From: Amphiscolops sp. MND2022
Lineage: Eukaryota
Reading direction: 5' to 3'
DNA: 64,000 nt
NCBI GenBank assembly: GCA_964187785.1
Contig: OZ076409.1
Location: 76,944,001-77,008,000 of the forward strand
In this document: positions 14,268-64,000 of the stretch, one piece after another
How the letters are laid out: each line of letters opens with the position of its first letter
Numbering within the stretch: the first letter of the stretch is position 1
The notes under the pieces: generated by a model
What the model was told of the DNA's origin: nothing
Seen by the model: only the letters and a program-made list of their open reading frames with translations
Database searches by the model: none
Translations under genes and position numbers: made by a program

Positions 14268-14488
14268 TCTACAACGTTTCCTTATTTGCTGAAGATGAGT
14301 GCTTAAGGTGAGGATATTTTGGCGTTTTGCTTAATTTGTACGAAATGACGACCCACTGGCTCATTCGAATGACATTTTCTATATGCATTGCTGGATTCAG
14401 TTCTAAAGGAAATCGCAAAGTCTCAATGAATGCTCGGGGTGGCTTTTGGGAAACTTTCAAAGGAGTAAAATTCTTCGAAAGCATAACC

Positions 14489-31601: not shown

Positions 31602-31680
31602 TGGAAACGTTTCAGAAATGTCAGACACGTATCTGGAATGTCCATTGGAAACGTTTCAGAAGTGTCAGACATGTATCTGG
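31596..31680. repeat. 44-bp tandem duplication at the start of ORF-S
   Basis: GTCCATTGGAAACGTTTCAGAA(A/G)TGTCAGACA(C/T)GTATCTGG starts at 31596 and at 31640. Confidence 0.85.
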
Positions 31681-32971
31681 CTTTTAATAATTTCTTAACA
31701 ATTTCTAAAGTGGAAAAATTCGCTGCGGATTTGGCAAAAGGCAAGTGAATTCAAAATTCAAGATTTGAAGACTGATCAGTTTCATTTAACGTAAGTTACT
31801 TCAAACTTGTTTCGTGAAATTCCCGTGTTTCGCTCTCCCCGCCAGGAGGTCCATTGACAACCACATCGACAAGTATTTGATATCACTATGCCGCGCCCTG
31901 GTTGACATTCGATAAACTTTTCTCATCTTCGGAGCGGCAAGTAGCCATCAAAGACTTTACATAGTGTTTATCAACACTCATAAACCACCTGAGGTTTTCA
32001 AGTGGATGTAGATATAGCTGAAGGCCATGATGTCGCGTTGCATTTTGAATGGCCAATAGGATTGCGATAAATTTCTGCTGAATTCAAAATAGCCTCCCAA
32101 GGCTGTGGATCCATATGAGGAATAACATACAATGACCTTGAAAACAAATAAAATAATGATAAAATCATGGAATAATTTGGAAAAAAGCAAAGTTTTCGAA
32201 ATGAAACAAGATAAAATAATGTAGATAACGCTGTTAGACTTTATCCACACAGTAATATAAATTGTACGTAATTGAAAATTTGTCATCAAACTGTATTGTC
32301 ACGATTGCCAATTTTGACATCCTGTCACATTGCCGATTCGCCATTCCAATTCTTTTCATTCAATTCTGCAGTATTACTGTTTTTTTCTTTATATCACCAG
32401 TACTCATCCATTGAATTTATTTTTCACCATATTTAATCCACAGTTAGTCTTTTAGTCTTCGTATCTTATTTATTTGCATTCTTCTATTGTGTTATCTCCA
32501 TCTTGGGACTCAGTGTCCATCTGTCCTCATCTGTGTGGATTTTCTTGGACCGTTCCGGATAACCGACATACAGTCCCCACTTGGCTACTCCCATGCCAAT
32601 TTTTACCCTCTCCGACTTCCTTGTCAGAGATCAACTGCAACAACGAATAAAAGAGTTGGATTCCAGAACTTAGTGTCCCCTCATTGCGACAATCTTCATC
32701 TAATTGCAGAACCGCTGACATCTAGGACACTTCCAACAGACTCTTTGCATTGAAATTCGAACAGGCCAGTTGAATTCATGTTCTTTTTAGCTATTAGTTT
32801 GAATTAAACTGAGGCTTGATCAAGGCTCTCATTTCATTCACGTACTTCCTGTCCAATAACACGAGTGTTCATTCAAGTTCAAAACTATCTACTTCCGGAA
32901 GATTTTTTAACGCGGTAAATGGATCTTGATTCAGTAAGATCCCGCTTGATTTTGTCTCTTTTTATTTAGAC

Positions 32972-35900
32972 ATGTCGACAAAAGAACCAAAGTCTGAATT
33001 GCCTCCTTCGCCAGACAAAAGTCAGGAGACAGTCCAAATGACTCAGGGTACATCTGGGAATTTATCTGGAGACTTGCAGCCTGGTTCGAATCAGTCATCT
33101 AGCAGTGGTGACACTGAGGAAAGTCTCGCTGCCTACGCGGATCATACTCTTCGTGCCTTAGCTTCCATAGAGTCTCAGAGTCACTACCCTTTGAGCGGGA
33201 GAGGACTGAACCTTTACAAGCTAGCGAGCAACTGCAAGAAACGTCTGGAGGGACTAACAGTAAACGTGTGCCATGGGATCGGAGTAAGGATTACTTTGCC
33301 ACCGATACTAGTGAAGTAGAGGAACTATACGACAGTATGGGAGCAGAATGGATTCACAAGAGGCTTACGTCTTGCATCACCTATTCCGATTTAATGGCGG
33401 GGGCTGAAGATACAGGCGGACATGATGAGAACAGGACAAAACCGACTCCTGCTTGTCCTGAAGTCAAAGAGCCAAAAATGCCCGAACAATTTTCCGCAAA
33501 TGGGCAAGCTGTGTTCAGGAAGCATTTCTCACAATCCAAGCCAGTCACACTTCCTAAAGGACATAGCACTGTTTCGTTCAGTGTGCCGCAAAGCCATGCC
33601 GTCCTCGAGACTATTTCCCACAAAACCGTGAAATGATCAGTCCACGTCATGCGCTCCCTCGTCCTGCATGCTGTCTACGGGGGCGGAAACAGACTCCTGG
33701 GCAATTTAAGAAGTCGATGATTCAAGGAGTAACCTCTGCCAGGGGCGCATATACCAGCTCTGCCGAAGAAACGGAGAGTGACGGGTGTAATACCGATGAC
33801 TACACTAGTGGAGCCATTACGTCTGATGACGAGCTCATCGCTGCTACTAGACGCCGAGGTGGTACAACAATACCTCGATCATCTTTTACTTATCCCGTCA
33901 CTTCTGATGAGGAGATTGAAGAAACCCCTGGTACACGCCACACCATTGTTCCCAGCCCAGGTTATAGTGAAGGTGATTACCAGCATTTGAGCTCCATGCA
34001 ATCGAACACTCACCCAAAACGCCCTACCGCAAGCGCTCCTAGGAAAAGACGTAAGAACGTTGGTAGACCCGGCAAAGTCATGAAATCTGCGTATTTCAAG
34101 GGTATTCAGTGGACAAAGCTGTTTGTAACGAGCCCCTTGGACCCCGTTCACAACAAGCACAAATTTTATTGTCAAATCTGTAAGACAAACGTGTCGATTT
34201 ATTCCAAGCGAACCAGGGAAAAAGTGTGGCATTACCAATCTGAGGCACATCTCCGTAAGAACCAGTGATGGCGTTTTGAGCATCTCGGGAAAATTGACAA
34301 ACTCACTGGCCTTAAAGTCCATGCAGTCAGAGGAAGAGATGGACTTTTGCTCTCAGCCCTTGAGCTTGAAAAAGAGAAACCGCTGATTGAAGCTGCACCT
34401 CTGATGGATATTGGTCCCCGATTCACATTTAATGATGATTACATGGCAAACGAGGGAGGACTAACTAATTCAGAAGACAAAAGATTGGGAATTCAAATTT
34501 CCTCAAGTAGCCGTACCGTTCCACATTTTGGTAACCTTACCCTGTTGGAAGGATTATGTGCAGAGGTCAATAGTTTCACCAACCATCAGGAGATGCGTTT
34601 CGCCAACTTGACTGGAGTTCCAACCATCACACTTATAGTAAGTACTTCCAATTCTTCAATAACCAGCCTCAGGGGGTTGACATTAGTTGTTAGAGTGGAA
34701 ACATTATTGGCAATTTCTGATTGCTTAGTCGTGGACATCGCTGTTTTGAGAAATTCGATTTGTTCTGGGCTTTATTCCACCATGTCTTCCTACGAGGGAT
34801 GGAGGACGTTGCTCAGGCAGTGACTGCTTGTGGAGCATACTCTTCAAAATTTGAGCCACATGGGAACCAATGCATTCTATCTTTGCGGTATTGGAAAGCC
34901 GACAACCTGGTCAAGGTCCAACTATGCAAACATCCACTGTCCTCCGAACCAGGTCCCAGTCAACTGCTGATGGTCTCACGCCTCATTTACTTCCTGTCCG
35001 CTTCGCCACAGATCGTCTGCATCTCAGGATGCACATCGGAAGTGCTACAGGCAGTTGAACAGTCTGGCTTATTCAAGAAGGGGTTGAATACCCTTTCCGT
35101 TTCAATGCCCTGTCTTTCCCTAAACTCACGCACCAACTCGAGGGAAGTGTGTTTGGCGGAATAGACTTCTTCACCCAACTGAAATACCTCCTGAGCTTTC
35201 TCAGTAACAGTCTCGAACAGCCCTGGATGCCAAATTGTCCAGAATTAACCGAGGTTTGGATTGTTGAGATAGCGTTATCTTGGTTTCATTTTATCTATCG
35301 CGATAACGCAATCCTTGTCCCTTTCGGGTCATTAACAGCTGTGACTTACGGAGACGATCCATTCCCGCAATCAGCACTGAGGTGATTACCAATTGGCAAC
35401 CCCTCCTGGACCACATGACCAGAATTGCACCAAGCTATGAGATGCGAGTGGTTTAAAATAGGGTTGTAAGTTGTCCTATTGATTGGTTTAACCAAACACC
35501 ATGCACTTATGACGAGGCTGTTTTCTTTTAGCCACAGAGTCTGGAATGGACGATAATTACAGATGACTTCTTTCTGGTCAAATTAGAGTTCTTCGGGAAG
35601 ATGATTTATGATTGATAGTATAACATCCAATTCAGAACATTCCCATATTACTAGGGCCCATTAGTTGCTTCTTTATGGAATCGGAACAAATATATAGGAT
35701 TGTTCTTAAAAGTGATGTTTCTCTGCTTAGATAATCGTTGTTTTGAGAGAAGTTTGGTTGGGCACAAAGACTCTGGACTTTTTACTTATGGGCAGTTGAA
35801 TAATTTCATTCGGAAGCTTTGTTACCGCTCTCTCCTGCCAAAGCACCTGCCCAAAGATACAGACTGGACACAGCTTCCTGTCCTACGAACTTTAGAGTTA

Positions 35901-36882
35901 TGTCAGCTTTCCTCCGGAGATTTTCTTCATCGATTGAAATTGAAAGAAGATTTGGACAAAGCTGCCACTGCCAAAGTCAAGCGTGATCACAGTGACAAAG
36001 AAGGACATATACTCAATCTTGCCAAGCTCGTCAAGGATTGCAAGGAGAGATTCGTTAGTAAGGCGAGAGGCTACCTCGTGTTTTTGCTCGAAAAGTTGCC
36101 ACAGTATAAACACCGAGATTGTCAGAAGAATGGCTAGCTTTAATTACCATATTCTCTTGAGTTCACCACCGGAACAGGTTACGCATTGCTTCTTTGCGTT
36201 GTACAATAGTTTCAGCCTCCGCGGATGGCTTGAGGGATCAACCGAGGATCATTGCCCAGACGAGTACTTGGAATTTACAGACCAGTTCCGACAGAAATAT
36301 GCCTCTTTGAAAGACTCGCCTGATGGGTTTACGGACATGGTAGAGTTGTTGTCTGGAATGTCCGAGCTCCGCAATCGCCCCCACCTATATCACATGTAAC
36401 GACTGCGTTGTTTATGTTTAACTGAAGATACCCTCTTGCTCCTTCCGATACGCTTTCAAGATGTTGATGCTCAGAGTCCCAGGTGTAGATTGGTAGATGT
36501 GTTACTGCCAGCTCAATCCTATTTGGCACGGGTCCCAGAAGCCATTACAGTTTGCACCAATGATGATTCTTTGACGAAATATCGAGAGGGGGATGAGCTG
36601 TTAAGTTCTGCGAATATGGCTGGTGACCCTTGGGTCCATGTAGATACTTTCGGAAGAGCAGAATTCTACAAGACTCTCATTGATACTTATAAGTCTATAG
36701 TTCGAGTGTCAAAGTCAGCTTTCTCAAGCCGGTCTAGTTCCTGGTCCAGTTCTCTTTCCATTAGTGGTCGCCTCAAGCCTTCGTCTAGTAAAGGGAAGAA
36801 GAAGGTTGTTTTCGGCCTTCCCATGACTCTGAAAGAAAACAAGCCTAATCAGGAGTCATCGCAAGACAATGCTAATCTTTAA
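32972..36882 (+). pseudogene. Antisense accessory gene of element A: BED-zinc-finger, hAT-transposase-like protein; exons ~32972-34637, 34769-35253, 35328-35462, 35532-35613, 35731-36882; multiple frameshifts
   Basis: Exon-by-exon protein similarity to 58548-62593 (GKVMK.AYFKGIQWT, FHHVF.RG, PQSLEW.II.DDFF, FQDVD..S.RCRL, AGDPWVHVD.FG). Several splice sites are decayed. Confidence 0.85.
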
Positions 36883-37107
36883 AGGTACATTACGTACATT
36901 TGTCTTATAGTTTCTTCTTTTGTATAAACGTTGAACTGTATGTACATCTGTTTATTGTCTATTAGTAGTCTTTTGTTTTGTTACCCAACAGCGGGTTCTT
37001 TGTCACATTTTGCTTCATTTGTGTATATAATTATATAGTCAGGGCAGTCCCAAGAAAAGGTTATCAGTCAGTTCAAATGACTATCGGGACATTAATTTAC
37101 ATTCTGA

Positions 37108-40100
37108 CTAATATCTGTATTTATCACTAAAGTTGGGGTTGGGGTTAGGTCGCAGGTTATATTTACCTGCTCTGGGGCTAGAATTTCTGCAGTTTTTTCA
37201 TTGTCCGATATTCCGGGCACGGTAATATCTGCGCCCCCATTTGAAACAACTTCCGGGCTTTCTAAGTCATTAGTGACGTCATTTTCATTTTCTGTCCCAC
37301 CAGGCGATTCATTCAGCGGGGACGTCGCGTCTCGGCTGCTGGCCGGCCTCGGCCTTAGTTTATTCTCGGTGACGTCACTTTCATTCGTACTCGCTGCTGC
37401 GTTCCTTTTCCTTTGTGCTGCAACTATCATTCTCGGTGACGTAATCGTCCACTCCGCCGCTCGCGGCGTCATTCGGCTGACTTGTGGCCGTATCTGGCCA
37501 ATTATCTTTTCTCGTTTCAAATAACTCGTAGTCGAAGTCTAATTCCCATGAAATTAAATACAAGTCATCTTGCGGTATTACTATCTCTTCGTCAGGCTGT
37601 AATTTTTCTTCTTTGTATTTGTCCTCCAAAGGAGTTTTTGGGACCAATTTTTCGAGTCTAATGCGGTGTAAAATTTGCGTTTTGTTCGTATTCAAACGCC
37701 GCACTATACTATTGTTCTTGGGTGAAACTTTTTGTACGATAAATGAACTGATCCATCTGTAGTCCCTGAATGGTATTCTAGATCCTTGGCTAACCGCTTT
37801 GGCCTTACGGTCGTAGTATTCTTTGTACATTAATTACGACTGCATTAAATTCCTTTTCGTTTGATTGACGAGGAATGCGTTCTTTGCTGTACTTCTTCCG
37901 CAAATTCAGTTGACGGGAGGAAATTTTTATTAGGATTTTTTCCTAAATGGTGATCAAGGACATTATAGGGATTTCGGCCATGAAAAACTTTACCGGTCTC
38001 ACATCCAGTACTGAAATGATAAGAAGTGTTATAAGTGAGCACAGCTAGCGGCAGATATTTGTGCCATTGGCGTCGATATTCACCTGACGCCATTTTCAAG
38101 TTAGTCTTTAGAGATGCGTGTGTCCTTTCAAGCTTGCCAATTGTTTGCGGATGTTTTGGGGTAGCACATTTGAGTGTTATACCCAAAATTTTGGTTACTT
38201 CCGTTACAATTGTTGAGGTAAATGCGGACCCCTTGTCTGTGATGAGGGTTGATGGCAAGTACGAATGTTTTGTCATTATATCGATTTTCACCTTGGCCAC
38301 GTTTGTGGCTGTTGCCTCAATTAGCGGGTAGGCGAATAGATATCTTGAGAATACATCAATTGCTGTCATCACTGTCTGGTATCCGCCACTTGTCGGTACA
38401 TTCGGTAATAGGTCAAATTGCATGACGTCTTCTAAACCGAGGTCCCGTTCGGGCAAGTTTAGCAATTCAGGTGTAATCACAGTATTAGGGACCCGTTTAT
38501 CCTTGGCACATGTTTCACAGCCTTCTACCCCTTTTTTAATGTGTTTTGCTATTCCTGGGTAGTAGTATGTTTTGGCGAATTTCTTGGAGCATTTTAGAAA
38601 TGCCTGGGTGTCGATGTGCTGTGCCATGTATCGCTTGCAGTAATTCCCTTAATAGGTGCTTTGGCAGTAGGATTTGATGATATTTTACTTGTCTGATTTC
38701 ATCATAATACTGCCGTGTTACAATTTCATCTTTGAGAACTGGTCGGTCAAAATAGGTCCTGTTGAACGATTTCCTCAGAATACTCCTCCTTTTGGATTTT
38801 TGCTTTCAGTTGACGTAAAATCTGATCTTTAGATTGCTCTAAGATTATTTGATTCGTTCGTCGTAATTTCCGGGTGAAATTGGTAATTTCATCCTCCGTG
38901 TTTTCTGATATTGCATCATTTTGAAATATTGGCCCAGGGACCTTGAGGCCCTTTTGGGATTGTTTCATTCCTTCCCAAATCTGTTCTTCCGTCTCATTGT
39001 TCTCTTCAGTAAAAAAGACTTGCCTCTGTTCGGACACTCCGGCTGATTGGATTGGACATTGACCTCGATTGGTTGTGTTTCTACGTCCTCACGTAGTTTC
39101 AGGACTAACTTTTCATTAAGGTCCATTTCCATACGGGACAGGTAGTCCGCCGCTGTGTTATTTTTGCCTGGAATGTGGGCTATGATGAAATTGAATGGAA
39201 TTACAAAATCACAAGCATTCCAGAGGGGCGGTGGTTTTATCTTGGTCTAGAAGAACCTCGTGACTGATTTGTTATCGGTAAGAATAATTATTGGTTTAGG
39301 TGATCCCCAGAAGATATGTCCAAACTCCTTGAAGGCGTAACATAGTGCTAGGAATTCCTTTGCATATATTGACATTTTGAGCTGAGAAGGTGTAAAAGTT
39401 TTGGATCCCTATGCGATTGGCGCATAGGACTTTTTAACAGAAGGATATTTCTGATTTGGGTCGTCTTCGGACAGTATGGCGTAACCGGCGGCTGTAAAGC
39501 TTGCATCGGTCCTCTGGACCAAATGTTGGTTCGGTAAGGGTTGCTTCAGTGCTAATTGGCTACACCTGTCTAGGTCTCTGTTGATCTCGTGGAATTGTTC
39601 GTTTAGCTTTGTTGTCACTAGGACCTTCTCGTCCTCTTTGAGGAGTTGGAAGAATGGAACTAATGTTTCGGATATACTTGGTATGTAATTCCTGTAGTAA
39701 TTGCGGAAGCCAAGGTAGCGTTGTAAGGCCTTCTTCGACTTCGGAAATTTCTTTTTTTTCCAAGAAATTGGTAATTCGTTTCTTTTGAGGTTTTACTCCT
39801 TCAGGAGTAATTGTTCTCCCAAGGAAGTCAATTTCGGTGGCGCCAAAGTGGCATTGATGCATGGACAGTTTTAGTCCGGCTTTTCTGATGCACTGAAAGG
39901 TCGCTCTTAAGTTGGTGATGAGATGGTTAGCATCAATTGCAGCGCATTGGTCGGCTTTTATATCACAATCTCTCATAAAGCTGAAGATACCGATAGGGCT
40001 CGACTGAGTCCTTGTGCTAATCTCCTTTAGGCAAAGGTCTTGCTGGCGAAATTAAAGGCTAGCATTTCGATGGACTTCTGGTCCGCCATGGGGACGCAAT

Positions 40101-40407
40101 GATATGCTAGTGAACAATCGAATTTACAGAAGAGTTTTTCCCCTGCCGTATGTTGTGCATCCTCTGTCAAGGTTTTGACTGGTTGGTTGTTATGGACGTA
40201 ATCATCTGAAATCAGATTATTTAATTTTTGTCAGATCAACCAGCAGTCTCAGTGTACCATTGGGTTTTTTAGGGCGAATATGGGACTGGCATACTTTGGA
40301 GCCATTGGTGTCTCTAATATATTGGTGAAAAGTAATCATCGGAGGATCTGATATGACATACTGTCGAACTGACATATAGTCATGTATTTGGAGTCGTGGC
40401 AATAATA
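37108..40407 (-). pseudogene. pol: pol of element A (RT-RNase H-integrase remnants; protease region and YVDD motif deleted)
   Basis: Fragments homologous to B pol: KKPNG.LRLLVDL, CHFGATEIDFLGRTITPEG, TDASFTAAGY, TDKG...KLERTH. Confidence 0.9.
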
Positions 40408-42091
40408 GTTTTTTGAATCAGTTTTGCGAGAAGTTGATTGGCCAGAAGCGTTTGTCTTTGTGGTACTTGACTTCTTAGGTGTCTTTTCTTCTCCAGAGGT
40501 GTCATCGGCTTTGTCATCCGTGTGCATCCTTTTGGGACGTCGATGTGCCCCTGCCCCTTTCCAGCACCGTTCAACGGGGTGGTTCTTTTCCCCCTAAGTT
40601 GGGCATTCTGAGTAAGTTGGACGTTGGGGCTTTTTGCCATTTTTATCTTCCAATTCCTTTTTCTTCTTGAGTTCGGGTAAAGTTCTATAGTAGTGGCCTG
40701 TAGCTTTGCAATATCAGCATTGGGCATCCTTGTTGGTGTTAATACCATTGGACAGCAAATTGCTATTGTTGGTGGACGCTGAGGCCATAGTGGCCATTGG
40801 CAAGTCTTCTGACTCCTCCAATGCATTGAGTTCGAGCTCTCTTTCGAGATGAGCGACATTCTCTTCATATGTCCCATTCTCCAGACGGGCCATGTTGACA
40901 GATCGTTTCAACTTCGGAGGCAGTTTTGCATACAACAGGCTGTCAATCATACTTTTTGCATTTTCACCAAAAGCTTTTTCTGCTCCTTGGTCCAATTCTT
41001 CCAAGTAACCTAGCAATTTCATGGTATTAGGGTCAAAAGTGAGTCGATGCCGTTTATGTTTTGCCTAGATTGGGATTCCGATTTGACGTATTTCCTCCGG
41101 AATATGACCAGTACGTCCTCTAGAGTCTAACGGTTGATGGAATTTATGTTCCTGAATGTCTGTATTGCCCCCTTTCGCAGCAGTGAGTGGAAATGGTTTA
41201 TCTTCATCTGCTCTGTCATAGCCGGTTGCATTTTGATCATTGTATGGGACAAGTCCTCAAAAAGCTCAAATTTTTCGCTTTTTCCGTCAAAAGTCATTGG
41301 CGTGGTTTGAACTGGTCTGATGGTCATCGATTGGGGTTTGTTTTGCAAAGTGATCAAAAAGTCAGCCAATCTGTTTAACGGGTCCTGCGGTGTTTCAGGT
41401 ACCTCTGGTTCTGGGGCTGGCAGAGTGGTGTCCAGAAAGACATTGTGGTTTGATTGTTGTCTCTCCAAGTTTTGGATTGAGTGGATTCGTCCAGTCAAAA
41501 ATTCGGGAATTTGCTGTTGGGCGTCGTTAGCTCCTGTCACCATGTAAGACCCACGTCTCGTGGTGTCTCTCAAATCACAAGCGGACCGTGATCCCTTTTT
41601 TGTTAATATGGTTTTCAACCCGAATGTATTTTCCCTGTTTTCCTGACTATTAGGGGACAGGCTTGTCTCAGTGTCCCTGTACCCTGAAGATGACATTGAA
41701 CTCACAATGTCTTGAATCTCTGGAATAACTCTTTCAGATAAAGCAGTACTGATGGCCGTTTATTTGATTGTGGACCACGGACATCATAGAGTCCAATTCT
41801 TAAGACAGTCTAAGATTGAACTCATTTGAAAAGGTCTCAAAAGACTGCCTGACATCATTTTGTCTCGGTGAATCATTTTCACATGCAAAATCCATATAAT
41901 CACTTCTTTGATGAATATTTTCCTCGATGTCACCTTGGACTGAAGATTGCTCAAACGCGTTTGCTAGTTCCCTTTCATCAGGATTCCCATTCCCTAGCAT
42001 ATTTTCTGAATTATCCAAATCGGAAATCATGTCCATTTCTCTAGATTTTCTAGCCTTGGCCTTTTGCTTTCTGTCTTCTTGTGAAAGGCAT
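40405..42091 (-). pseudogene. gag: gag of element A, starting inside the 5' LTR
   Basis: ATG CCT TTC ACA AGA AGA CAG at 42091. Fragments 41800-42036, 41127-41705 and 40714-41022 match B Gag. Confidence 0.85.
41531..41542 (-). promoter_or_regulatory. Primer binding site of element A (TGGTGACAGGAG; probably tRNA-Leu-like)
   Basis: Follows the LTR end CTTACA and is identical in element B. It differs by one base from the tRNA-Leu-type PBS TGGTGTCAGGAG. Confidence 0.8.
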
Positions 42092-43082
42092 AAATGTCTC
42101 TTTTGGGGAAATATTTATTTTTTCCCTATGACTTTACCAACAAAGAGAGTTGATAGAAATGGTTTACAGTGTACAAAAGTATAAACTGATACTGTTGAAG
42201 GAATCTCGAGTTATGGTCCCTAAGACCACGAGTCCCTCGTATTTATACCTGCACCTTCATGACAGTCAATTTTAGAGGCGTCAAAGGTCTATTTTTAAAA
42301 TGAGGTAAGCTGAAAATAGCATCAGGGTGACGTAATACTCTGAATATAAACATCTAAAGGTAGCGGCATAAATGTTTACATGGCCTTAAAGGCTACATCA
42401 ACTATAGTCATGGAAAATGCATATGAAACATTTACATGTCAGAGCAACATTACATGTATAATAACACATATTTGCATGAAGATTAATGGACTAAAGGTCC
42501 ATTTGATGAATATGGGGAAAAGGCTACGAGTTAAAACCTCTTGGTTTCCTGAGGCTATTTCACTTTTGATTAGCGCCTTTTATTGAGTGGATGAACGCTG
42601 AATAGCTCCTTTCATTCAATTTTGGACTCAGTGTCCAATTGCCGCAGCTTTTACTTCAAAATAAACAAATCAATGACGAACCGCCATTGAGTCCAATAAT
42701 AATGCTGATAAGTATACTGCTCTCTGATTAGTTGATAAATAAATCGGACTGTGTGTCCAGCGAGCCAGGAGATGAAACACTTGAGCTCGTTTCCTCTACC
42801 TGTACGCCTTGGTGTCCAATTTCTCAACGCATACAAATAACTTTACATGTCTTATTACATCAAATCAGTAACAAAGCAACCAAATAGATATAGTTACATG
42901 TTTTATTATATAATAACATAACAAAACAGTTTCATTATGTAAAGTTTCAGTCCTGCCTACTCTGATCTTCCGGGCCTGACTGTCGACCTTTCCTTAATTG
43001 AGAGGGATTGTCTCGGGTAAAGCCCTACCGTAATCATAGGCACGCGTATACCAGTTGCCATCGCAGGCGGCCGCCTGCGACA
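41543..43082 (-). repeat. 5' LTR of element A (1540 bp)
   Basis: Direct repeat of 29394-30879; TATA-like TATAAATA on minus near 42240-42247. Confidence 0.95.
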
Positions 43083-50357: not shown

Positions 50358-51985
50358 TGTCGCAGGCTGCCGCCTACGATGGCAACATTTACACGATTGA
50401 CCATACGAAGCCAATCGCCCTACCTGGGACGCTCCCATTGTAAACCAAAACTTTCAAACATTTAGTATTATTTTGAACATGTAATATTAATTGATGAATT
50501 ATATTGTTATTTCTTATGTAAAATACATTTGACAGCAAGACATACTGACAGGCAGAAAGGAAACGTGTTCAAATGTTTACCTGCTCAGTATGGCTAGCTA
50601 AGCCGCCTACGGTCAATTGGCCAATCAGAGTGCAGTTTGTAATAGCCATCTTATTACTTATTACGTAACTGTGCTAATAACTATTTAGAATGGACCAAGG
50701 CGGCCAACTAACTTTGCCGGCCTTTTTGTGCTCTAATGCTATACTTGATTGGTATTCAGTAATTACAAATAGGACGAAAGCGGCTATGTGACATAGCCGT
50801 CCCAATTCACTGTATTAATTGTCTTGGTGCTATGCAGTAAATAAGGCCTGTCATGGCCGGTTGGCACGATGAATACTCAAATGCTGTATACTTGCCATAT
50901 GAAATTGGTATTCCAGTTAATTAGTGGCTTGAAGATGCAAATAACCCACCCCATGCAATAAACAGACATATACACTGTTAACATGTAATTGTTGCTCTCT
51001 CATATTATGATGGGACTGAATTAGAAAACCCCAACGGCCATACGCCGAACAGGGCCTTCATGAATTGTTGTGCATGTAAACTGTTGCTTGCATGAATTAT
51101 ACTTGTAAACAATTTGACCCATATGTGGATGAGACTTGTCGGGCCCTTTGATCTAGCCGCCCGCACAAGTCTAAAATGATGTCATGTTACTATTTATAGT
51201 GCTGACGTATCTATTTTTAGTTTGCGTTGCTATTTTTAGTATCATGACCGTTACAATTTTGCCTGTCATGCCCTCTGGGGTATATATACCCAAGTCGGCC
51301 TGACAAAGGTTAATCATAATTTAGCAGCTACCTGATACACTACGCTCATTTTGATTAATCTGAAAATAGAAATACTTGTCCACAGGAACAATTCAAATAT
51401 TTTCTCCTGGAATAATATTTTCAATGCCTTCTACGAGGAGACAAAAGGCCAAGTCTAGAAAATCGAGAGAATTAGATATGTTGTCCGACTACGGCAACAT
51501 GGACGTGATGCTAGGTGGGAGAAGTTCCAACTCTATAGAGAGAGAACTCGATAGCTTGATTAACGTCCCTGAGGGACAACGAGACTTTCAGTCCTTTCCA
51601 AATAGAGAAAACTCATCTCAAGAAAATGAGATTAGAGACATTGATAGTAGAAATGAACCAGTTAGGGAAAGTAGGCTAATTGAGTCTATCAATACGCTAT
51701 CTGGTGAAATGAACGCTAGGATGTCACGCGAGATGAAGGCTATGATGGACCTAATGCAATCACAAATTACCAGAGCCATTAGCTCTGCTATAAGCGAGAG
51801 AATTATTCCGGAAATACAAAATATGGTTGAAAACTTGCCTTTGGGTCAAAATGGCGTTGGGCCGGGTACGTCCCTAAATGAGGATGGAGTCAGAAGCGCA
51901 TGGGAGAACGCAAATACAAGATTGACAAAGAAGGACTCTAGGTCCGCTTGTGACTTGAGAGAACATCCGGACGTTAGTCCTTACA
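50358..51985 (+). repeat. 5' LTR of element B (1628 bp, boundaries inferred from homology with A)
   Basis: Begins TGTCGCAGG and ends CCTTACA before TGGTGACAGGAG; TATA-like TATATATA at 51281-51288. The second LTR is not in the window. Confidence 0.85.
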
Positions 51986-53126
51986 TGGTGACAGGAGCTA
52001 CCGAACTCCAACAGCCGATTCCTGAATTCCTCACAGGACGAATCCACTCTCAGCCAGACCTCCAAAGACAAGAATCTACTCATGATACAACTCTGGATAC
52101 AACTCTGCCAATAGCGGAGCCTGCTCCGGCAGAACAGCAACAAGACCCTATCAACCGATTGGCAGATGTCCTGGTAAACCTCCAAAATAAACCACACTCG
52201 ATGACAATTAGACCAGTCACGACGAACCCCATGACATTTGACGGCAAACAGAGAAATTTGAATTGTTTGAAGATTTATTTCATACAATGATAAAGATGCA
52301 GCCTGCTATGACTGAACAAATGAAAATAAACCATTTTCATTCTCTGCTCAGAAAAGGAGCACTGCAAACTTTCCGAAATATAAACTCCATAAACCGTCAA
52401 ACATTAGAAGACGTATTGGTCATATTCCGCAGAAAGTACGTCAAACCCGAGTCTCAAGCCACAGCTAAACATAAGTGGCATAGGCTCATCTTTGATCCCA
52501 ACACAATGAAACTACCCGATTTTCTTGAGGAACTCAACCAGGGTGCCGAGAAGGCCTTTGGGGAAAACGCCAAAAGCATGATCGACAGTCTCTTGTATGC
52601 TAAATTACCCCCAAAACTCAAAAGATCAGTAAATATGGCTCGACTGGAAAACGGGACCTACGAGGAGATTGTGGCACATCTGGAACGGGAACTTGAGTTA
52701 AACGCATTAGAAGAATCTGATGACCTACCCATTGCTACAATGGCTTCGTCGTCCAACAAATCCCGAAATTTACTATCTAATGGCATTGACACCAACAAAA
52801 ATAACCAATGCTCATACTGCAAGGCAGACGACCACTTCTGGAAAAACTGTCCAAAACTGAAAAAGAAGAAAGAATCAGAGGCCAAAGACGGCAAGAAGCC
52901 TCAACGACAAACTTATCCAGAATGTCCCACCTGCAGCAAAACCAATCACCCAGCAGAGAAATGTTGGCGTGGCGCTGGTGCCCATCTTCGTCCAAAAAGA
53001 AATAGACAAGACTCCTCCAAAGACACGGAGCCCTCTGAAGACGAAGGCACTCGCACCAAGAATGAAAAATCCACAACATCCTCATCAGGCCAATCGAACT
53101 CCAAAAAACCGGAATCAAAAAACTAA
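51424..53126 (+). CDS. gag: Gag with two CCHC zinc knuckles; one apparent 1-nt deletion near 52248
   Basis: MPSTRRQKAK start; CSYCKADDHFWKNC and CPTCSKTNHPAEKC. Element A reads FDGKSEKFELFEDL continuously where B shifts frame. Confidence 0.9.
51986..51997 (+). promoter_or_regulatory. Primer binding site of element B (TGGTGACAGGAG), within the gag reading frame
   Basis: Identical to A. Read in frame as TAC ATG GTG ACA GGA GCT (Y M V T G A). Confidence 0.85.
53117..53123 (+). other. Putative -1 ribosomal frameshift heptamer A AAA AAC at the gag-pol junction
   Basis: X XXY YYZ pattern in the gag frame just before the TAA. The -1 frame is the pol frame. Conserved in A at 40408-40414. Confidence 0.75.
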
Positions 53127-56100
53127 TTTTGCCACGACTCCAAATCTCTGACCAAATGTCGATACGACAATATGTCATATCTGACCCAGCTAACATCGCT
53201 TAAAGGCAATCACAAGAGAACATCACAGGGACCCCATCGACTGTCTGGCAGCAGCAGATGGTGGAAGCCTGTACTCAAACTCAATATATTATTCACAGTG
53301 ACCACCCATACCTATATCGACGTAATAACCTCACCAAAGACTTAGAAACCCAATTCCGACCCTTACAAACTGTCGAAGACTATAACCCCCAATACTACGA
53401 CCCCGAGTACGGCAAAGACCCGTACTGGGATGATGATTTATACGATAAACACAATTTACAATTTCGGAATGATGACTACCCGCCAACAGACGATGAGTAC
53501 GACCCTGACATTGTAGACACCATACTGTCCCGGGCACTTATCGAAACGTGGCAACCAAATTTTGATGCAATCAAAGATCAGCCACATACAGAAGAGACAC
53601 AGGCCATACCTGGCCTCCTCGACGAGACAGCCTTCATACATGTCCTTGTAACTAAAGAGGGAGAACCAGCGTACATACCATTATCCACAAACCTCGGACT
53701 CAAATACAAACAACGGATGCTATATTTCCCGATGGACTTTGGGGAACTAACCATAGACGGCCTCATAGACACTGGAGCTCACTCCAGCGCAATTCCGGAA
53801 GCAGACCTCAGGAAAATACGCCTATTGGCGCCCCAATCCATAGTCAAAGAGGGACCTGCCCCGACGTTCCAAAGTATGGTCGCAAACGGACAATTGGAAA
53901 CCACAAAGAGCACTGTTGAACTCAAGTTCGAAGTCGGAGATATCGAATTCCACGAAATATTTATAGTAATGGAAAAACTGACTGGCCCTATCATAGGATT
54001 AATGTTCCTCCAGAGGAATCATACAGTACTGGACATGCGACAAGGCATACTCAATTTCCCATATTTCTCGATGCAACTCAAAACGGCTGACCATAAATAC
54101 TCCAACGTACTGGAACCAATACTTAACCCAGACGACATCACAATACCACCCAATGACCGTACCTTAGTAGAGATCAAATCCCAAATCTACAATGAAAACA
54201 CGGTCACAGGTGTGTTGCAACCCAGTGATCTCCTCCATGAAGAAGGCGACATCACATTCTGTGCCGCAATAGTAACATTGACTAATGGAAACGTTAACGT
54301 TCATATCAACAATTTCACAGACCAACCGTACAAGCTTAAAAAGGGACTACACATAGCAAACTTTTCTGTACTAACACCGGAACAGATGAAACACGTCAAA
54401 CCAATTGACCCGGTGTCCACATGGCATCTCCTCAATGAAAATGAAGAGGATGCGATCTACTATGTCAGTAGTCTACTCAAGGCTAATCGGAACAATGACC
54501 AATATGAACAGTACTGGTTTCCTACGCCAGAAAACCCAGGGGACGAAGATTCCTATACTCCCATCCAACGACGAATTATTCAAGAATTACGAAACCTCCA
54601 AGAAGCTCAACAACTGAATCATCAGAATGATGATGAGTCACGCCGCAAATGCCTTGGCAATTTCGACTGGAAAAACTCCATGCTGCAACAACATGAAATC
54701 AAAAAGATCGAATCGCTTTTAGTCGAATACCATGACATATTCGCACGACACAGATTTGACATCGGAATGAATGAAGAATTCACGGTCAAACTGACCCCTA
54801 AGGACAATTCGCCTGCTTACAGCCAAAGTCTCCCAACTCCAGTCAATTTAAAAGAGGACATACTCGTCGAACTGGCCCTCTTACACAAATATGGCATAAT
54901 AACTACACTGCCATTTTCGAAATACGCCAGTCCCATATTCGCACAGAAAAAACCGAATGGGAAGCTAAGACTACTAGTCGACCTGAGGAAAATTAATAAC
55001 CTCATTTCGGATGACTATATAAACAACAATCATCCGGTTAGTACCCTAACGGACGCTGCACAACATATGGCAGGAAAGAAACTATTCTGTAAACTCGACT
55101 GTTCACAAGCATATCACTGCCTACCAATGGCGGATCAAAGGTCCGTTGAGATGCTTGCGTTCAACTTTGCAAGCCCCACCTTTGCGTATAGACGACTTGC
55201 CCAGGGCCTTAGCAGGGCATTATCAGCATTTTCAAGTTTTATTAGGGAATATCTCGACAAAGTTAGTTATCAAAGCTGATCAATGTGCCCAATATGTCGA
55301 CGACATTGGCATAGCCGCCAATGATGCGGATCATCTCATAAGAAATTTGAAAGCAACATTTGAGTGCATTAGGCATGCTGGCCTTAAACTGACAATGCAC
55401 AAATGCCACTTCGGGGCAACGGAAATCGATTTCTTGGGGAGAACAATTACTCCGGAGGGAGTCAAACCACAAAAGGAGCGAATAACCAACTTCCTAGAAA
55501 AAACCAAATTCCCCAAATCTAAAAAGGCTCTACAAAGATATCTTGGTTTCCTCAATTATTACAGGAACTATATCCCAAGATTATCTGAAAAATTAGCTCC
55601 TTTCTTTCAACTTCTCAAAAAAGACGAAAAAGTCCTGGTGACCACAGAACTAATACAACAGTTCAATGAAATCAATCGGGACCTCGACAAATGTAGCCAA
55701 TTGGCCCTGAAGCAACCCTTACCAAACAAGCAACTGGTCCTGATGACAGACGCTAGTTTCACAGCGGCCGGCTACGCCATACTTACCGAGGACGACCCAA
55801 ACCAGAAATATTCATCTGTCAAAAAATCATACGCTCCAATTGCATATGGCTCAAAAACGTTTACGCCATCGCAACTCAAAATGTCCATATACGCAAAGGA
55901 ATTCTTAGCAATTTACTACGCATTCAAAGAATTTGGACATATTTTCTGGGGAGCCCCTAAACCGATTACTATCCTAACGGACAACAAATCGGTCACGAGA
56001 TTCTTCCAGACGAAGATAATCCCTCCAACACTCTGGAATGCATGTGACTATGTAATACAATTCAACTTTGTCATAGCACATATACCAGGGAAAAACAACA

Positions 56101-58369
56101 CAGCAGCTGACTACTTATCTCGCATGGAAACGGACCCCAGAGAGAAACTAGTCCTTAAAATCCGAGAAGACATAGAGACTAAGCCCATCGAGGTCAATGT
56201 CCAATCGGCAGGCGTAGCTGAAGAGGAACAGGTCTTCTTCACGGAGCAAGATGATGAGACAGAAGCTCAAATTTGGGAGCGTAAAAAACAAAGCCGAACT
56301 AACCCAATCGACCAAGAAGGCGTAATTCAAATTGACGCAATATCTGAAAGTTTAGTAGATGAAATTACGAACTTTACCCAAAAAATGCGCAGAACGAATC
56401 AAATTTTACTTGAACAATCCGAAGACCCTATGCTGCGCCAACTCAAAGCCAAAGTTCAGAACGAAGACTATTCTGAAGAACTACTCCAGCAAGATATCCG
56501 ATACAAACACTACCTTAACAACTTGGACCGAATAGTCCTTAAAGACGAAACAGTCACACGACAATATTATGATGAAACTGGACAAGTCAAGTATCACCAG
56601 GTTCTCTTACCAAAACACCTTTTGACAGAATTGTTACAGGCCTTACACGGAACGGCGCACAAACACCCGGGCATATCGAAAATGTTACAAGAAATTCGAC
56701 AGAAATACTACTACCACGGTATAGCAAAACATGTTAAAAAATGGGTAGAAGGATGTGTAACTTGCGCAAAAGATAAAAGGGTTCCAAACAACACGATAAC
56801 ACCTGAATTGCTTAACTTGCCAGAATGGGACCTTGGCCCAGAGGACGCAATGCAAATTGATTTACTCCCAAACTTACCAACAAGCGGGGGTTACCAAACA
56901 GTGATGACAGCAATAGATGTCTTTTCAAGATATCTATTTGCCTACCCGCTAGTTGAGGCAACAGTCTCTAACACGGCAAAGGTCTTAATAGACATCATGA
57001 CAAAGCACTCATATTTGCCAACTACGATCATCATCGACAAAGGAACCGCTTTCACAGCAAAAATAATTGCAGAGATAACGCAAGTATTGGGAATAATCCT
57101 AAAATGTGCGACAACTAAACATCCACAAACAATTGGCAAACTCGAGAGAACTCACGCCTCATTGAAAACAAATTTGAAAATGGCCTCAGGGGAATATCGC
57201 CGTCAATGGCACAAATATTTGCCGCTAGCAGTGCTCAATTATAACACAACTTATCATTCCAGCATCGGTTGTGAACCGAGCAAGGTCTTTCACGGAAGAA
57301 TTCCCTATAACGTTCTTGATCATAAACTTGGAAATAACCCTAATAAGGATTTCCTCCCCACGACGGAATTTGCTGAAGAATTACAACAGAGAACGAAAGT
57401 TCTCATTGACAAAACGAAGCACAACATTATGCAGTCCTACTTGAAATATAAGGAGTACTATGACCGAAAAGCCAAAGCAGCTCCTCTCAGCGAACAAGAT
57501 TTTCGTTTTATCCTACAGCCTAAAGCAGATAATCAAGGATCAAAAATACCACTCAGAGAATATCGCTGGATCGGTCCCTATCGAATTGAAAAGGTATTAC
57601 CTAACCATAATTACATTGTCCGCCGGTTAAATACGAATAAAACACAGATATTACACCGAATCCGCCTGAAAAAATTTGTTCCTAACACGACTTTACAGGA
57701 CAAATATGCCAAAGAGAAATTGCAACCAGATGATGAAATAATCATACCACAAGATGATTTATACACCATCTCATGGGAAGCAGATTTTGACTACCATCTC
57801 TTTGAGCCGAGACGAGACGATAATACGGACGAAGAATCGCAAAAACCAGACAGCGATGCTGGTGTCACGACTAGTGATTACGTCATTTATGACAACGCTG
57901 ATGACAACGCGGTAAGGCCGAGGACGGCCACCAGCCGAGACGGCACAATCACACGAGACGCAAATGACGTCACCGAACTGAATGAACGAACCAAAAGGAA
58001 TGAAAATGAAGCGGGACCGAGTACGGCCGCTAGCCGAGACGCACCTATAATGCATGATGAACATGACGTTAGCGAGAATGCTGCGCGAGACGAACAAAGC
58101 AGCGAAATAGAAAGGCCGAGAACGGCCACTAGCCGAAATAGCCACAATGGTGGCAATACACCACCTAGTTCAGAAAAGAACGTGAATGACGTCACAAACG
58201 AATTAGAAGGCGAGAAAAACTCTCCTAACGAGGGGGATGATATTACCGTGCCCGGAATATCGAATGAAAAAGCAAATGAAAAAACTGACAAAAACTCTAG
58301 CCCTAGAGGGGGAAATACAACCTCCGACCTAACCCCAACCCCAACTATACTGACGAATACAGATACTAG
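53123..58369 (+). CDS. pol: Pol: aspartic protease, dUTPase-like segment, RT, RNase H, integrase with GPY motif and long tail; a few lesions (TAA near 53201, 4-nt duplication near 55262, G loss near 58310)
   Basis: LIDTGA; KLDCSQAY and QYVDD; TDAS...KEFLAI...TDNKS...ADYLSR; H..H..C..C; QIDL / IDKG / KLERT; WIGPYRI. Confidence 0.95.
57914..58140 (+). repeat. Three ~99-nt tandem repeats in the integrase tail
   Basis: RPRTATSRD, GPSTAASRD and RPRTATSRN at ~57914, 58013 and 58113. Confidence 0.7.
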
Positions 58370-58547
58370 TCAGAAATGTTAAATTATGTCCCTATTTATT
58401 TTATTGCCCGGGATGGCATGTTTTTTACTGGGACTACTCTGACTTCTTTGACTCAAAAGAAACTAACTATATAAATACTAAAACAAGAAACAGAACTGAA
58501 ATTTACAAATAGAAAAGTCTAAAATGGCGAATGTACACTATGTACAT

Positions 58548-61500
58548 TTAACTTTTAGAGCTTCCTTCTCGCAATTCTTGGACAGTCTTTGAGATCTCAC
58601 TAGCAGGAATGTCGCCAAAATAGGCCAATTTTTGAGCTTGCCCAGCAGCCCAATTTATCTTTCGCCCAGCAGAAGTTGAGACAGAGGACGAACGTGAAGC
58701 CGTGCTAACGCCAACCACAGGAGTTCCTTTCAAATTCTTGAAGGCAGCAGTAAGGGTCTTCAGGAAATTTGCCTGCCCAAAGACGTCGACGTGAACCCAA
58801 GGGTCTCCAGCAAGCTGTCCAGAACTAAATTGTCCCTCCAATTCTTTGTAGTTGGCTAGAGCGGTTTCAGTGGTACAAACGGAAATCGCACTTGGGCAAT
58901 TTGTCAAGTAGGATTGGGCGGGCAGTACTACGGCAGAAAGACGGCACCGGGAACTGGAGGTATCGACATCCTGGAATTTAACGGCAGGAAGGGTTTGATG
59001 TCCCTCAGTTATGCAAAGGCAGCACAACTGAAACAAGCGAAAAAGCCTAGCACGACTTCGGAACGCAGTAATTGGAATAAGGAGATGTAACACGTCAGCA
59101 ATAGTCCCTGGGGAAGACTTAATGGAAGGGTAAGATTTGCGGAAGTAATCCACAAACTCGAAATATTCATCCCGACAGTCATTACGGGAGGATTCGTCCA
59201 CCCAGCCGCGAAGTCGAAAGCTGTCATACAAAGCGTTGAAGCAAAAGGATACTTGCTCAAGAGGTAATGTTAACAACACATGGGGATCGAAGCTACCCAT
59301 ACCGCGGACAATATTCGCGGTGAAGTGAATATCCCGAAGCAAAGACTCCAACAGAGTGACTATATACGCCCGGGCTTCAGTCCCAAAGTTCTCCTTCTCC
59401 TTGGAGACCAACTCAGCCTGATTAGCGGGTACAGGGTTTGATCCCCTAGATTTCTCCAGTTTTGCTTGACAAACCAGATGAAGGTCACATGTGAGTTTGA
59501 GGCGATGCAAGAAATCACGGATTGATAATTGTCTCAGATCGTCAGGGCACAATTGCAAGAGACCATACCAGTCTGTATCGCTTGGGATACATTTGGGCAA
59601 GATGACGCGGTGGCACAACCGGCGGATGAATCTGCAATATTGGCTATAAACGAAGAGGGTTGCATCCCGCCGTCCAGAGAGACTTCGTTCAAAAAACTTG
59701 GCATCTAAACAAATTTAGAGTCAGATGCAAATCACCAGAATCTACCAAATCCCCCACCTCATCACAAATGTGGTTATGCTTAAGGCCGTGATCGGCACAT
59801 GAGCCGGTAGGTCAACTACACTGGCGGTTCAAATAAAAACAAAGAAAAAACTAACAATCGCGGACCAGCAAGGAGAGGAATTCAAGCTTGATGGTGAAGA
59901 AGTCATCTAGAATAATCTCCCATTCCAGGCTCTGAGGCTTAAAAGGAAATTTACCTCATAAGGATTACATCTTCCAAGATTACAGTGTGGTGTAGTTACC
60001 AATGCTGATCAGCTAGAAAACGGCTAATAGCTACCTTATTCTTAGCTCCTTGCATCTTCTGGGTTGGGGCTATACTGGTCAGGTAGTCCTTGATACCTTT
60101 CCAGCTTCTAACGAGCTCGGAACAAACGGCAGGGATCTTCTTAAGTTCCACATCACATGGCTGTTATGGCCTACGGAACACAATCAAATAAGGAGAACTG
60201 CTTTTTACTAGTGAAAGTGACCAGGAAAGAGTATCGACACCAGGTCACCAAGACAACGTCTAATGAAAAAATTATGTTGAAAAATAAAATCACCTTGCAA
60301 AGTTCAGGACTCTGTAGAGCCCAAGATTGACTGAGCCCGCCTCGGAGGTAGACAACTAGGAACTTCAGTTGGGAGAAAATGTCAATTCGACCAAAGATGT
60401 AACCAGTCTGCAGTGCTGTGGGGTGCATTAACTCGGGAAGGGAGAAAACCTCGAAGCGGAACGGGTACTGAATCCCGCGGTTGAACAGCCCACATGTCTC
60501 CAAAGCTCTGAAGACCATGGAAGAACACCCGGAAACACTGACAAGATTGGGCTTTGAGGACACAACTGACAGCAGACATGAGATAGCTGTTAAGTAACAG
60601 CCCGGATAAGGGTCAGCTTGATTGTGCCGATGAAGTTCAACCGGCACGAGTGAGTCATCTCTCCAGAAACGGACGGACATGCACCGGTAGATGCCCTCTG
60701 TCGTGAACTCAATCGAGTACATCTCAGTAGCCATGATGTGACTGGAGATATCTGCGAGACCTCTCATGAAAACGTGATGGAAGACGTTCTAAAACAAAAC
60801 ACAAATGTACAAAAGTGACGTCTTAGCCAGAGGCCACGTTGGGTCTTACTATTAATTCTATAGATGAAGATTCTACTTACAGTAAGAGTTGCAGGTCCCC
60901 AATCGAATGAGGAAAACAAGGCTTGGTGGTTGGTGAACATGCCCACTCGAGTCCATAAGTTTCGCAACAGGGAAATATTGTCATCTTGCGGTACGAAAGT
61001 CCCAATCAATGAGATTAGGGTACTGGTCCGAAGGTCATCAGGGCTGGTTAGTCCTCCAATACTAGCCATGTAGTCGTCGTAGAACGGGAAACGATCACCT
61101 GTCTCGATCAGGGGGGCATCAATGAATAATGGCTTTTCTTGTTCCAGCTCAATTGGAGTAAGGACGTAACCATCTTTCCCTCTGACATAGTGGGTAACAA
61201 CCCCAGTAACTTCATCAGCCTCTTGCAGATGGGTGAACCTCCATTTTTGATCTTTCCGGAGATGTCCTTCTGTCTTATAGTGTCTAAGGATCTCCCTGGC
61301 GCCCTTTGAGAAAATAGAGACATTAGTTTTACATAGCATGCAGTAAAACTTGAATTTATTGTGGACGGGATCAACGGGGCCAGATACGAAGGTACGGGTC
61401 CATTGGATGCCCTTAAAATAGGCATCTTTCATCACCTTCCCGGGTTTGCTGAGCAACTTGCGTTTTTTCCGGGCTGGGCTCCTGTCCTGAGTTTCTTGCT

Positions 61501-62593
61501 CGGGTAGCCGTCCAAGCGACGAGAGTGGCTGGTAATCAGCACTGCTATACACGCTTCCAGAGTTTGGCGTTGCAGTTTCTATCCGGGACGTGATGGTGGC
61601 GTGGACTTTCCGGGCCCTTGGAGTCAAAGACAAAGGATCAGATTCACTCAGGCAATCTGTGCCAGAACTGGACCCCAACTGGTAAGGATCTTCATCTGTA
61701 TTGAAGGCTCCACTAGTGTAACCATCTGACACGTGTCCTTCAAAGTTACTTTCATCTCCTGAACTGTCAGTGAATGGCCGTGCAGGAGTTGCACACCGTT
61801 TGGGCATAGGCCTTTTCTTATCCTAGGGAGCTCCTCGAGTAGCATGAAGCAACAAAGACTTCATCATGTGGTAGGACGAAAGTACAGATTCGTCGGAAAC
61901 AGTCCTCGGAACAGCGTGCATCTCATCTGCGGTAAGAGCGATGACTGGTTGATCTCTGGGTAGTTCAATGGGGCGAGTGTCCTGAAAATATTTCTTGATG
62001 ACTAGTTTGCCCTTCGCAGAAAGTTGTCTATCGGTGCCGTCTAATTTGGCTCGATACTGCTCCTGTTCAGAATCACTGTGCCCTGAGTCTTCATGGAATC
62101 CCTCTTCTAGATCAGGGAAAGTAGAAGAGTCCAAAATGACATTTGGAGCGACTGGTGGGTAGACGGCAACGCCAGAGCTGTCCATTAAATCTTCTACATC
62201 TGTGGTGTCGCCATATAGTCCTGGTACTTCCTCTGTAGATTCGGTTTCCTTGTTACTGCCGGCCCCTGTCTCAATGTTTGTCAGATCATTCCTCACAGTA
62301 ATGGGCTCCGACACAGAGGCTTTCAGAAAGGGGATGCTGACAGTGACCATCCGGGCAGTAACGCCTTGCCGACTTTGCAGTGGATCTATGATCTCAGCCT
62401 CGGGTTGAGACATTACGTCAATAGTCCTTTCAATAAATGCGGTCACACTTTCTTCAGTAGACCTGCTGCCTTCGGACACTTGGGGAGAAGGCCTGACAAG
62501 GCCTGGTAACTCAACGGTCTCTGGAGTCTCAGTTTCATCGTTCCCGACAACTGGAGCGGTAGTGGGTTCTGGCGAATTTTCCTCTGTTGTCAT
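58548..62593 (-). CDS. Antisense accessory gene of element B: ~1190-aa BED-zinc-finger, hAT-transposase-like protein; exons 62593-60881, 60788-60294, 60170-60035, 59937-59856, 59704-58548
   Basis: Four GT..AG introns (92, 123, 97 and 151 nt) with compatible phases; zinc finger FYCMLCKTNVSIFSKGAREILRHYKTEGH. One in-frame TAG (61823-61825) and a probable 1-nt insertion at the start of exon 3. Confidence 0.8.
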
Positions 62594-63787
62594 ACCTAAA
62601 TGAAAAGAGATAATTCGATGCGGACAACTTCCTGAATATGAGTCCATCCAAACCGCAGTAAAATCTTCCGGAAGTGAAAAGGAATAAAACATGACGTCTA
62701 AATTGCATTGACGAAAATGGACAGGAAGTGCATGAACGAGATGAAAAGCCTTGATCAAGCTTATTTCCGTTCAAAAATTAAAAGACCAGATAGCTTACCT
62801 GCAGTTGTTGGCCAATTGGGAGCTGAAGGAGTATGACGTGAAGATCGTTGACGTATTGAAATTGTACTGCAATCCAGGCTAGAAAATCCTGAGGAACCGA
62901 ATGTCCTGATCGGGCAAATCTTTGGCAGTGAAGAGGGAGGAGTAGGTCTTGATAACGACGAAAAGGGAGATCTGGACGAGTCCGGCAACTGGACAACGAT
63001 CCTGAACGAGGGGATGAGAGGCAGTATGAAATTCACAGAAGTGCTGTGGGGTAACGGAAGAAGTATAATATTCAAACAATGACTCTGTACTAAATAAACA
63101 ATGGATAAATACGAATATGGAAAAGTAACGATTAATGAATTGGAAGAAGACGAAATTGATTGCAAGAGCAAAGTTGGAGTTCGTGGCAAACTGGATTTGA
63201 TGTCAAATATTTTTACAATTATGAGAATTATTTTGTGGATGGAATCTGCCAGAGAAATCCACATTAGTTATATTTCGAAACATGCATTTTCATTATTTTA
63301 TTACCTTAGTTATTTCATTATTTTTAGTTATTTTATTATTTCCTTATTTGGATTATTATTTTTAATTCCGCCATATTGAAAAGCGGACTGAGTGGGCGAT
63401 TCCCATTGGCTGTCGCGGCGATGCGCTGCGCGTGGCCTTAAAACTTCATCACCCTCTCTTGAAATTCTCAAGTGGATATCAAGTGGAGATAAACACTAGG
63501 CGAAGTCCTTGAAGGTTCTTTGCCGACTTAGGCAAGCTGAAGTTGATCGTCGGTCAACAAAGCAGAAGGCGGTCTATATCAAAGAACATCTTGGAAAGTT
63601 TAGTCAGCGAAACATGATGCGGGAAACGAAAGACCGGGAAAATGTGAAGCAAAACCATCGAGAAATTGAGAAATGAAAATCGCCATTTGCTTCCTAACTT
63701 TCAAACTAAACAGCTGCTCTACTCAAACCAAATTAAAATTGTCCTATTGCATTCAAAATTGCAAAAAAGATAATAAAAGATAGATTT
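62594..63787. promoter_or_regulatory. Putative internal bidirectional promoter between the two accessory genes
   Basis: Motifs conserved with A 31602-32971: CTTCCGGAAG, ACAGGAAGT, CTTGATCAAG and ATTGGC (CCAAT box). Confidence 0.55.
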
Positions 63788-64000
63788 ATGGCTCAACGAT
63801 TTCCTGAAGACTTCATCGGCGCAGCGCCCGAGGGCATAGATATCATCTGCCTGTCCAGCGACGAAGAGGAGGGAATGTGTGACCTAAGCATGACTTCGGT
63901 GCTAGACCTTCAACTGTCATCGGAGGACGAAGAAGAAATAGATGACGAAATCATGATGATGGCCCAGTGTGTCGAGATGGAATTATCATCACCCATCCCA
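63788..64000 (+). CDS. Accessory ORF-S of element B (5' part, runs off the window): acidic protein with tandem SIM-like motifs
   Basis: MAQRFPEDFIGAAPEGIDIICLSSDEEEGMCDLSMTSVLDLQLSSEDEEEIDDEIMMMAQCVEMELSSPIP; homologous to A 31407-31601. Not in the supplied ORF track. Confidence 0.75.
   Translation, partial: MAQRFPEDFIGAAPEGIDIICLSSDEEEGMCDLSMTSVLDLQLSSEDEEEIDDEIMMMAQCVEMELSSPIP

Follow-up and report, generated by a model that had tools for sequence, protein, structure and literature searches.

The 64,000-nt stretch of Amphiscolops sp. MND2022 analysed here (the window; contig OZ076409.1, positions 76,944,001–77,008,000) contains two related Ty3/gypsy elements, A and B, and raises the question of what is encoded by a long open reading frame (ORF) lying antisense in element B. 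An initial annotation, made from the sequence alone, had seen in it a hAT transposase that had lost catalysis and been domesticated by the retrotransposon. The ORF is a real five-exon gene (62647–58548, − strand; ~1,200 codons), located between pol and the 3′ long terminal repeat (LTR), and is fixed and under selection in a gypsy clade. Its descent from a hAT transposase is strongly supported and very probable, and the Asp-Asp-Glu (DDE) triad is not intact in any examined copy. The overall reading that we somewhat favour is that of a five-exon gene fixed in the clade, hAT-derived and without a triad, whose product is likely a nuclear DNA-binding trans-activator or anti-silencing factor. The gene has the following features:

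60881..62647, − strand: exon 1; Ser/Thr/Pro-rich acidic N-terminus of ~400 aa, basic patch, BED-like finger and start of the hAT body
61457..61471, − strand: RKKRK basic patch, a predicted nuclear localisation signal
61262..61342, − strand: C-x2-C-x16-H-x5-H finger, aligning with the finger of a hAT clade
60294..60788, − strand: exon 2; RNase H-like core, catalytic positions 1 and 2 not Asp
60035..60170, − strand: exon 3; alignable with the hAT clade's RW region, the RW itself being lost; carries a frameshift in B
59856..59937, − strand: exon 4; helix of the hAT insertion domain
58548..59704, − strand: exon 5; remaining insertion domain and C-terminal region, with Leu in place of the catalytic Glu, followed by a conserved Pro
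32930..36882, + strand: decayed copy of the gene in element A; finger within 34161-34250

In an alignment of 21 copies, conserved blocks are bounded by GT and AG and the introns are divergent. The four splice donors lie at a fixed offset in 42/46, 40/43, 43/50 and 45/46 loci and the acceptors in 42/46, 42/43, 48/50 and 43/46, while database proteins P0019 and P0014 cross junctions 3-4 and 4-5 without an intron and in the register expected. Counted from the first conserved Met (62647), the gene has ~1,210 codons; the ~1190-aa product predicted initially would fit a start at the second Met, and the interval 58548..61460 assigned to the gene at that stage left out most of exon 1. Both window copies are broken: B has an in-frame stop in exon 1 (61823-61825), and its exon 3 exceeds by one base that of all nine close copies in which the site was found (12 loci examined); the copy in A is heavily decayed. 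The most divergent lineage (L165, L166 and L171; reverse transcriptase (RT) 62% identical) shares this exon layout; its finger loop is longer, and it has a sense ORF of its own, of the kind described below.

A neutral nested insertion carried as a passenger, as the broken window copies might suggest, can hardly be the explanation and is already contradicted by the data on selection. In the 1.07-Gb genome (1,929 contigs), exon 5 has at least 107 matches and exons 1 and 2 at least 150 each (6,371–8,008 first-look candidates). Among 60 selected loci, exons 1 to 5 are unbroken in 56, 50, 53, 54 and 48, respectively, and all five in 39. In 53 of the 60, pol is encoded opposite the gene, and the other seven keep a pol tail, LTR or other element sequence, these being loci found via the antisense gene, so that elements without it are uncounted. 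Conserved splice sites apart, the gene is retained in lineages whose RT is only 62% identical to that of B, and the ratio of nonsynonymous to synonymous divergence (dN/dS) over exons 1, 2 and 5 is 0.26 (5 pairs, dS <0.1), 0.11 (7 pairs) and 0.08 (7 pairs), with 0.08, 0.08 and 0.06 for RT in the corresponding classes. The gene is thus under purifying selection (dN/dS ~0.1). A profile search returned 696 relatives among 1.84 billion representatives; ten that were looked up are unnamed proteins, mostly from ENA assemblies, and since the studied genome gave no long match above 32% identity to one relative (P0139), the family is suggested to extend to other genomes. Five loci (L154, L155, L159, L160 and L162) keep the antisense gene with pol reduced to its tail and are possibly non-autonomous derivatives.

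The hAT origin proposed initially was borne out by profile comparison with a hAT clade in which DDE is intact (L196, L197, L199 and L202; motifs SMDGP, CGLH, RW and HGNA.VESGFS), which is matched by exon 5 alone at 87.5% probability and by exons 3-5 at 94%. The clade itself matches Pfam-annotated hAT proteins at 97.6%; its finger aligns with that of the antisense gene (E 4.9e-4) and weakly with zf-BED (E 0.15). Finger type and spacing, domain order and the helices of the insertion domain are shared, and the segments quoted in the initial annotation do follow in hAT order, on exons 2, 4 and 5. An AF2 model of exon 2 is RNase H-like (helix, three strands, helix, strand, helix). The designation hAT/ZNF862-type held as to hAT; the closest group found is neither THAP12/ZMYM-type nor Ac-type, the profiles of which gave no signal above reversed controls.

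A finger and RNase H-like fold drawn from elsewhere than hAT would accord with these two unmatched groups, with the absence of any Pfam hAT family on single exons or members of three alignments, and with the exon 5 model (pLDDT 62), for which structure search gave no fold match. Such an origin is nevertheless very improbable, as the five exons, each tested alone, are collinear with one hAT clade and control comparisons are flat; an atlas search adds weak exon 5 matches to hAT clusters (0.90, few shared features), which serve as a lead. The atlas search with exon 2, the metagenome scan with exon 5 and searches for long homologs gave no match, PDB sequence searches returned nothing relevant, and a DUF4371 search of the same genome was as silent as its control. 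A chance antisense frame of pol and an env-like gene were also considered and rejected. The same genome holds members of the donor-like hAT clade that are decayed and carry internal deletions (L175-L194).

At the first catalytic position (D1), Asp occurs in 0/50 copies, Glu in 32 and Thr in 15, while the second (D2) is Gly in 49/50, or Cys in 44/50 if the register is shifted by one; both registers rest on weak alignment plus the fold, as exon 2 alone is not significant against the clade. At the E position none of 48 genome copies or 106 database rows has an acidic residue, and Pro follows directly in 46/48 and 95/106. The initial claim that acidic residues are absent from all three positions in A and B holds for D2 and E and for D1 of B (Thr), but A has Glu at D1. 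Loss of the triad extends to the family, with a hAT match found beyond the finger and no intact DDE in the copies examined. Residual nuclease or metal-binding activity through substitute acidic residues could draw on the Glu at D1 and on another, two residues earlier, that is conserved in 46/50; it is highly improbable given Thr at D1 in B among others, the loss of D2, E, CxxH and RW, and a window cassette flanked by neither terminal inverted repeats nor an 8-bp target duplication. As triad and termini fail, the gene is hAT-derived yet no member of the active hAT transposases, and an active nested hAT was rejected. It further differs from the clade in its ~400-aa acidic N-terminus and four introns, and in moving only within an LTR element.

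An additional result, beyond the initial annotation, is that the gene forms a cassette of 4.6 kb with sharp edges, which is swapped among backbones of near-identical gag-pol and does so independently of the LTR:

58400..63165 (approximate bounds), − strand: exchangeable cassette, comprising the gene and ~0.5 kb upstream of its start

Among ten pairs selected because their pol is similar, the upstream boundary falls 4,430-4,616 bases ahead of the stop codon and the downstream one 0-176 bases past it (9/10) or within exon 5 (1/10). L032 and L049 differ at synonymous sites by 2.5% in pol and 80% in the gene, whereas for L049 and L050 pol is the more divergent (80%) and the gene the less (17%). 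Trees of pol and gene for 18 copies are separated by a Robinson-Foulds distance of 24, and the tree from either is rejected by the data of the other (2,000 replicates, below the number advised by the program). Between L052 and L066, LTR, gag and RT are 99-100% identical, the gene is 52-75% identical, and identity then returns to 97-100%.

This exchange bears on two other roles. The hAT scaffold bridges DNA ends, and a dead transposase with basic patch and finger might bind cDNA ends or chromatin and escort or target the pre-integration complex. Nuclear import has been proposed for plant antisense ORFs (PMC7264820). Such an integration helper is improbable here, as the gene is swapped freely against near-identical integrases (L032/L049) and is a separate transcription unit, and its acidic N-terminus would fit transcription better. 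Deeply diverged alleles on nearly identical backbones, and a body that diverges faster than the finger, could alternatively reflect a repressor or decoy that limits copy number, excludes relatives or titrates silencing proteins, with cassette alleles as specificity types. The adjoining sense ORF, which has in 6/6 full elements a motif of the IICLSSDE type that we take to be SUMO-interacting motif (SIM)-like, would also suit it. We consider this role unlikely; the family is abundant and recently mobile, with LTR pairs 99.2-99.9% identical in 7/7 elements.

The favoured role, in regulation, fits the protein's layout: basic patch, conserved finger, acidic N-terminus and dead core would together suit a nuclear DNA-binding regulator. 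Finger residues C, C, H and H are retained in 55, 53, 56 and 53 of 56 copies, so that the finger recognised initially in B (61342-61262) and A is widely kept and better conserved than the remaining protein. The basic patches noted ahead of it (RKKRK in B, 61471-61457; RKRRK in A) recur as at least four Lys/Arg in six residues in 44/56 copies. The predicted disordered acidic N-terminus of ~390 aa is of the right size (375-460 aa in 34 open-frame copies) and composition (14% Asp/Glu, 31% Ser/Thr/Pro; low complexity), except that it holds one conserved block near residues 205-265.

A hAT may have landed in antisense orientation in an ancestral gypsy element, between its pol and 3′ LTR, where introns facing the other way would escape splicing from genomic RNA and survive reverse transcription, as established splicing logic expects of an antisense gene. 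Catalysis would then have been lost, finger and scaffold kept, and the acidic N-terminus gained. The protein, made from its own promoter, would enter the nucleus, where the conserved finger may bind a motif common to the clade and help in trans to maintain the activity of element promoters. The cassette could pass from one backbone to another by template switching among RNAs packaged together, and conflict with host silencing may lie behind its deeply diverged alleles. Because the cassette is independent of the LTR, a target shared clade-wide is argued for, rather than lineage-specific sites. That the product is a DNA-binding trans-activator or anti-silencing factor falls slightly short of an even chance, judged as it is from sequence features.

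Several points weigh against the overall reading. The cassette switches while the LTR stays 99-100% identical (L052/L066), and the window copy's LTR and spacer showed no array of tandem motifs, short dispersed ones being possible; together these fit poorly with tight VANC-type co-evolution of protein and target. As to ancestry, exon 2 alone is not significant against the clade (E 0.21; 0.051), Foldseek places its model near Hermes only at E ~0.1, with a VIA Z that ties with Pelota, the hhalign E-values are for a single template, and the clade was picked by a motif once comparison with two further hAT groups had given nothing. The 60 loci were selected for diversity and long open frames and are not a random sample, and 723/780 pairs are saturated.

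The elements carrying the gene, and their other products, are as follows:

50358-66169 (runs past the window end), + strand: element B, 15.8 kb
50358..51985, + strand: 5′ LTR of element B, 1,628 bp
51424..53126, + strand: gag of element B, frameshifted in the window copy
53204..58382, + strand: pol of element B (protease, dUTPase, RT, RNase H, integrase), in two frames in the window copy
63788..64000, + strand: start of the sense accessory ORF (279 aa), which ends at 64627 inside the 3′ LTR
64542-66169 (outside the window), + strand: 3′ LTR of element B, 99.7% identical to the 5′ LTR
29394-43082, − strand: element A, LTRs ~90% identical, many breaks

Element B belongs to Ty3/gypsy by its pol order (protease, RT, RNase H, integrase), together with its LTRs, a 5-bp target duplication (ATGCG), a primer-binding site and a polypurine tract. 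Gag starts ~1,070 bases inside the LTR and its frame crosses the primer-binding site (51424-52003), so that each 3′ LTR holds ~190 gag codons. The sense accessory ORF (L071) lies head to head with the antisense gene, has a CxxC besides its SIM-like motif, gave no Pfam match and is exchanged in part together with the first part of the LTR. Tandem elements with a common LTR were seen twice (L072+L031+L073, G000 C10; L078+L066, C2). Elsewhere in the window lie a 370-bp palindromic element (13900-14270) and an inverted pair of a 500-bp repeat (3897-4395 and 23054-23549). Between protease and RT lies a dUTPase (53204-55279), described as rare in retrotransposons (PMC5408684).

By position the gene belongs to the antisense accessory ORFs (aORF-3R). 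Those of plant Retand, Grande and RIRE2 (TRP28) likewise lie antisense between pol and the 3′ LTR, in most copies, and are proposed as nuclear regulators (PMC7264820; PMC11963269); their origin is given as unknown, without similarity to other transposons (PMC7264820), whereas here it is traceable and the gene has five exons. No TRP28 match was found. In Spm TnpA, MUSTANG, FAR1 and VANC, catalysis was lost and DNA binding retained, as proposed here; transposases can activate their own elements, Spm TnpA having arisen that way (10.64898/2026.08.24.746577), and TnpA serves its own transposon (10.64898/2026.08.24.746577; PMC13547354). These proteins stay in DNA transposons or become host genes, while in the present case a class II protein resides in a class I element, whose window copy showed no co-evolving target array of the VANC kind in LTR or spacer. 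Other accessory proteins have been traced to host genes (PMC13547354). The nearest animal parallel comes from bdelloid LTR retrotransposons, in which modular ORFs (ORF3) have been captured downstream of pol and a dUTPase likewise separates protease from RT; the ORF3 products are env-like, GDSL or DEDDy proteins, and the word transposase is absent from the accessible text (PMC5408684). No comparable case was found in the literature searched, most subscription papers and Repbase reports being outside its reach, so that absence is unproven.

The capture of a class II transposase by a class I element, as initially proposed, is upheld by a gene fixed and under selection in a gypsy clade. More tentatively, the clade may have domesticated a whole transposase as a transcription or anti-silencing factor, and, in an arms race against host silencing, maintain a stock of ancient alleles that can be swapped as a plug-in cassette. 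Antisense accessory genes are known from plant LTR retrotransposons, their origin and function being open (PMC7264820). Here the source can be followed back to a DNA transposon, which makes this a case of domestication of one mobile element by another; such a route has otherwise been described in host genomes or within DNA transposons. Natural recombinants of backbone and cassette separate the accessory gene from gag-pol and LTR, making its function testable by comparison.
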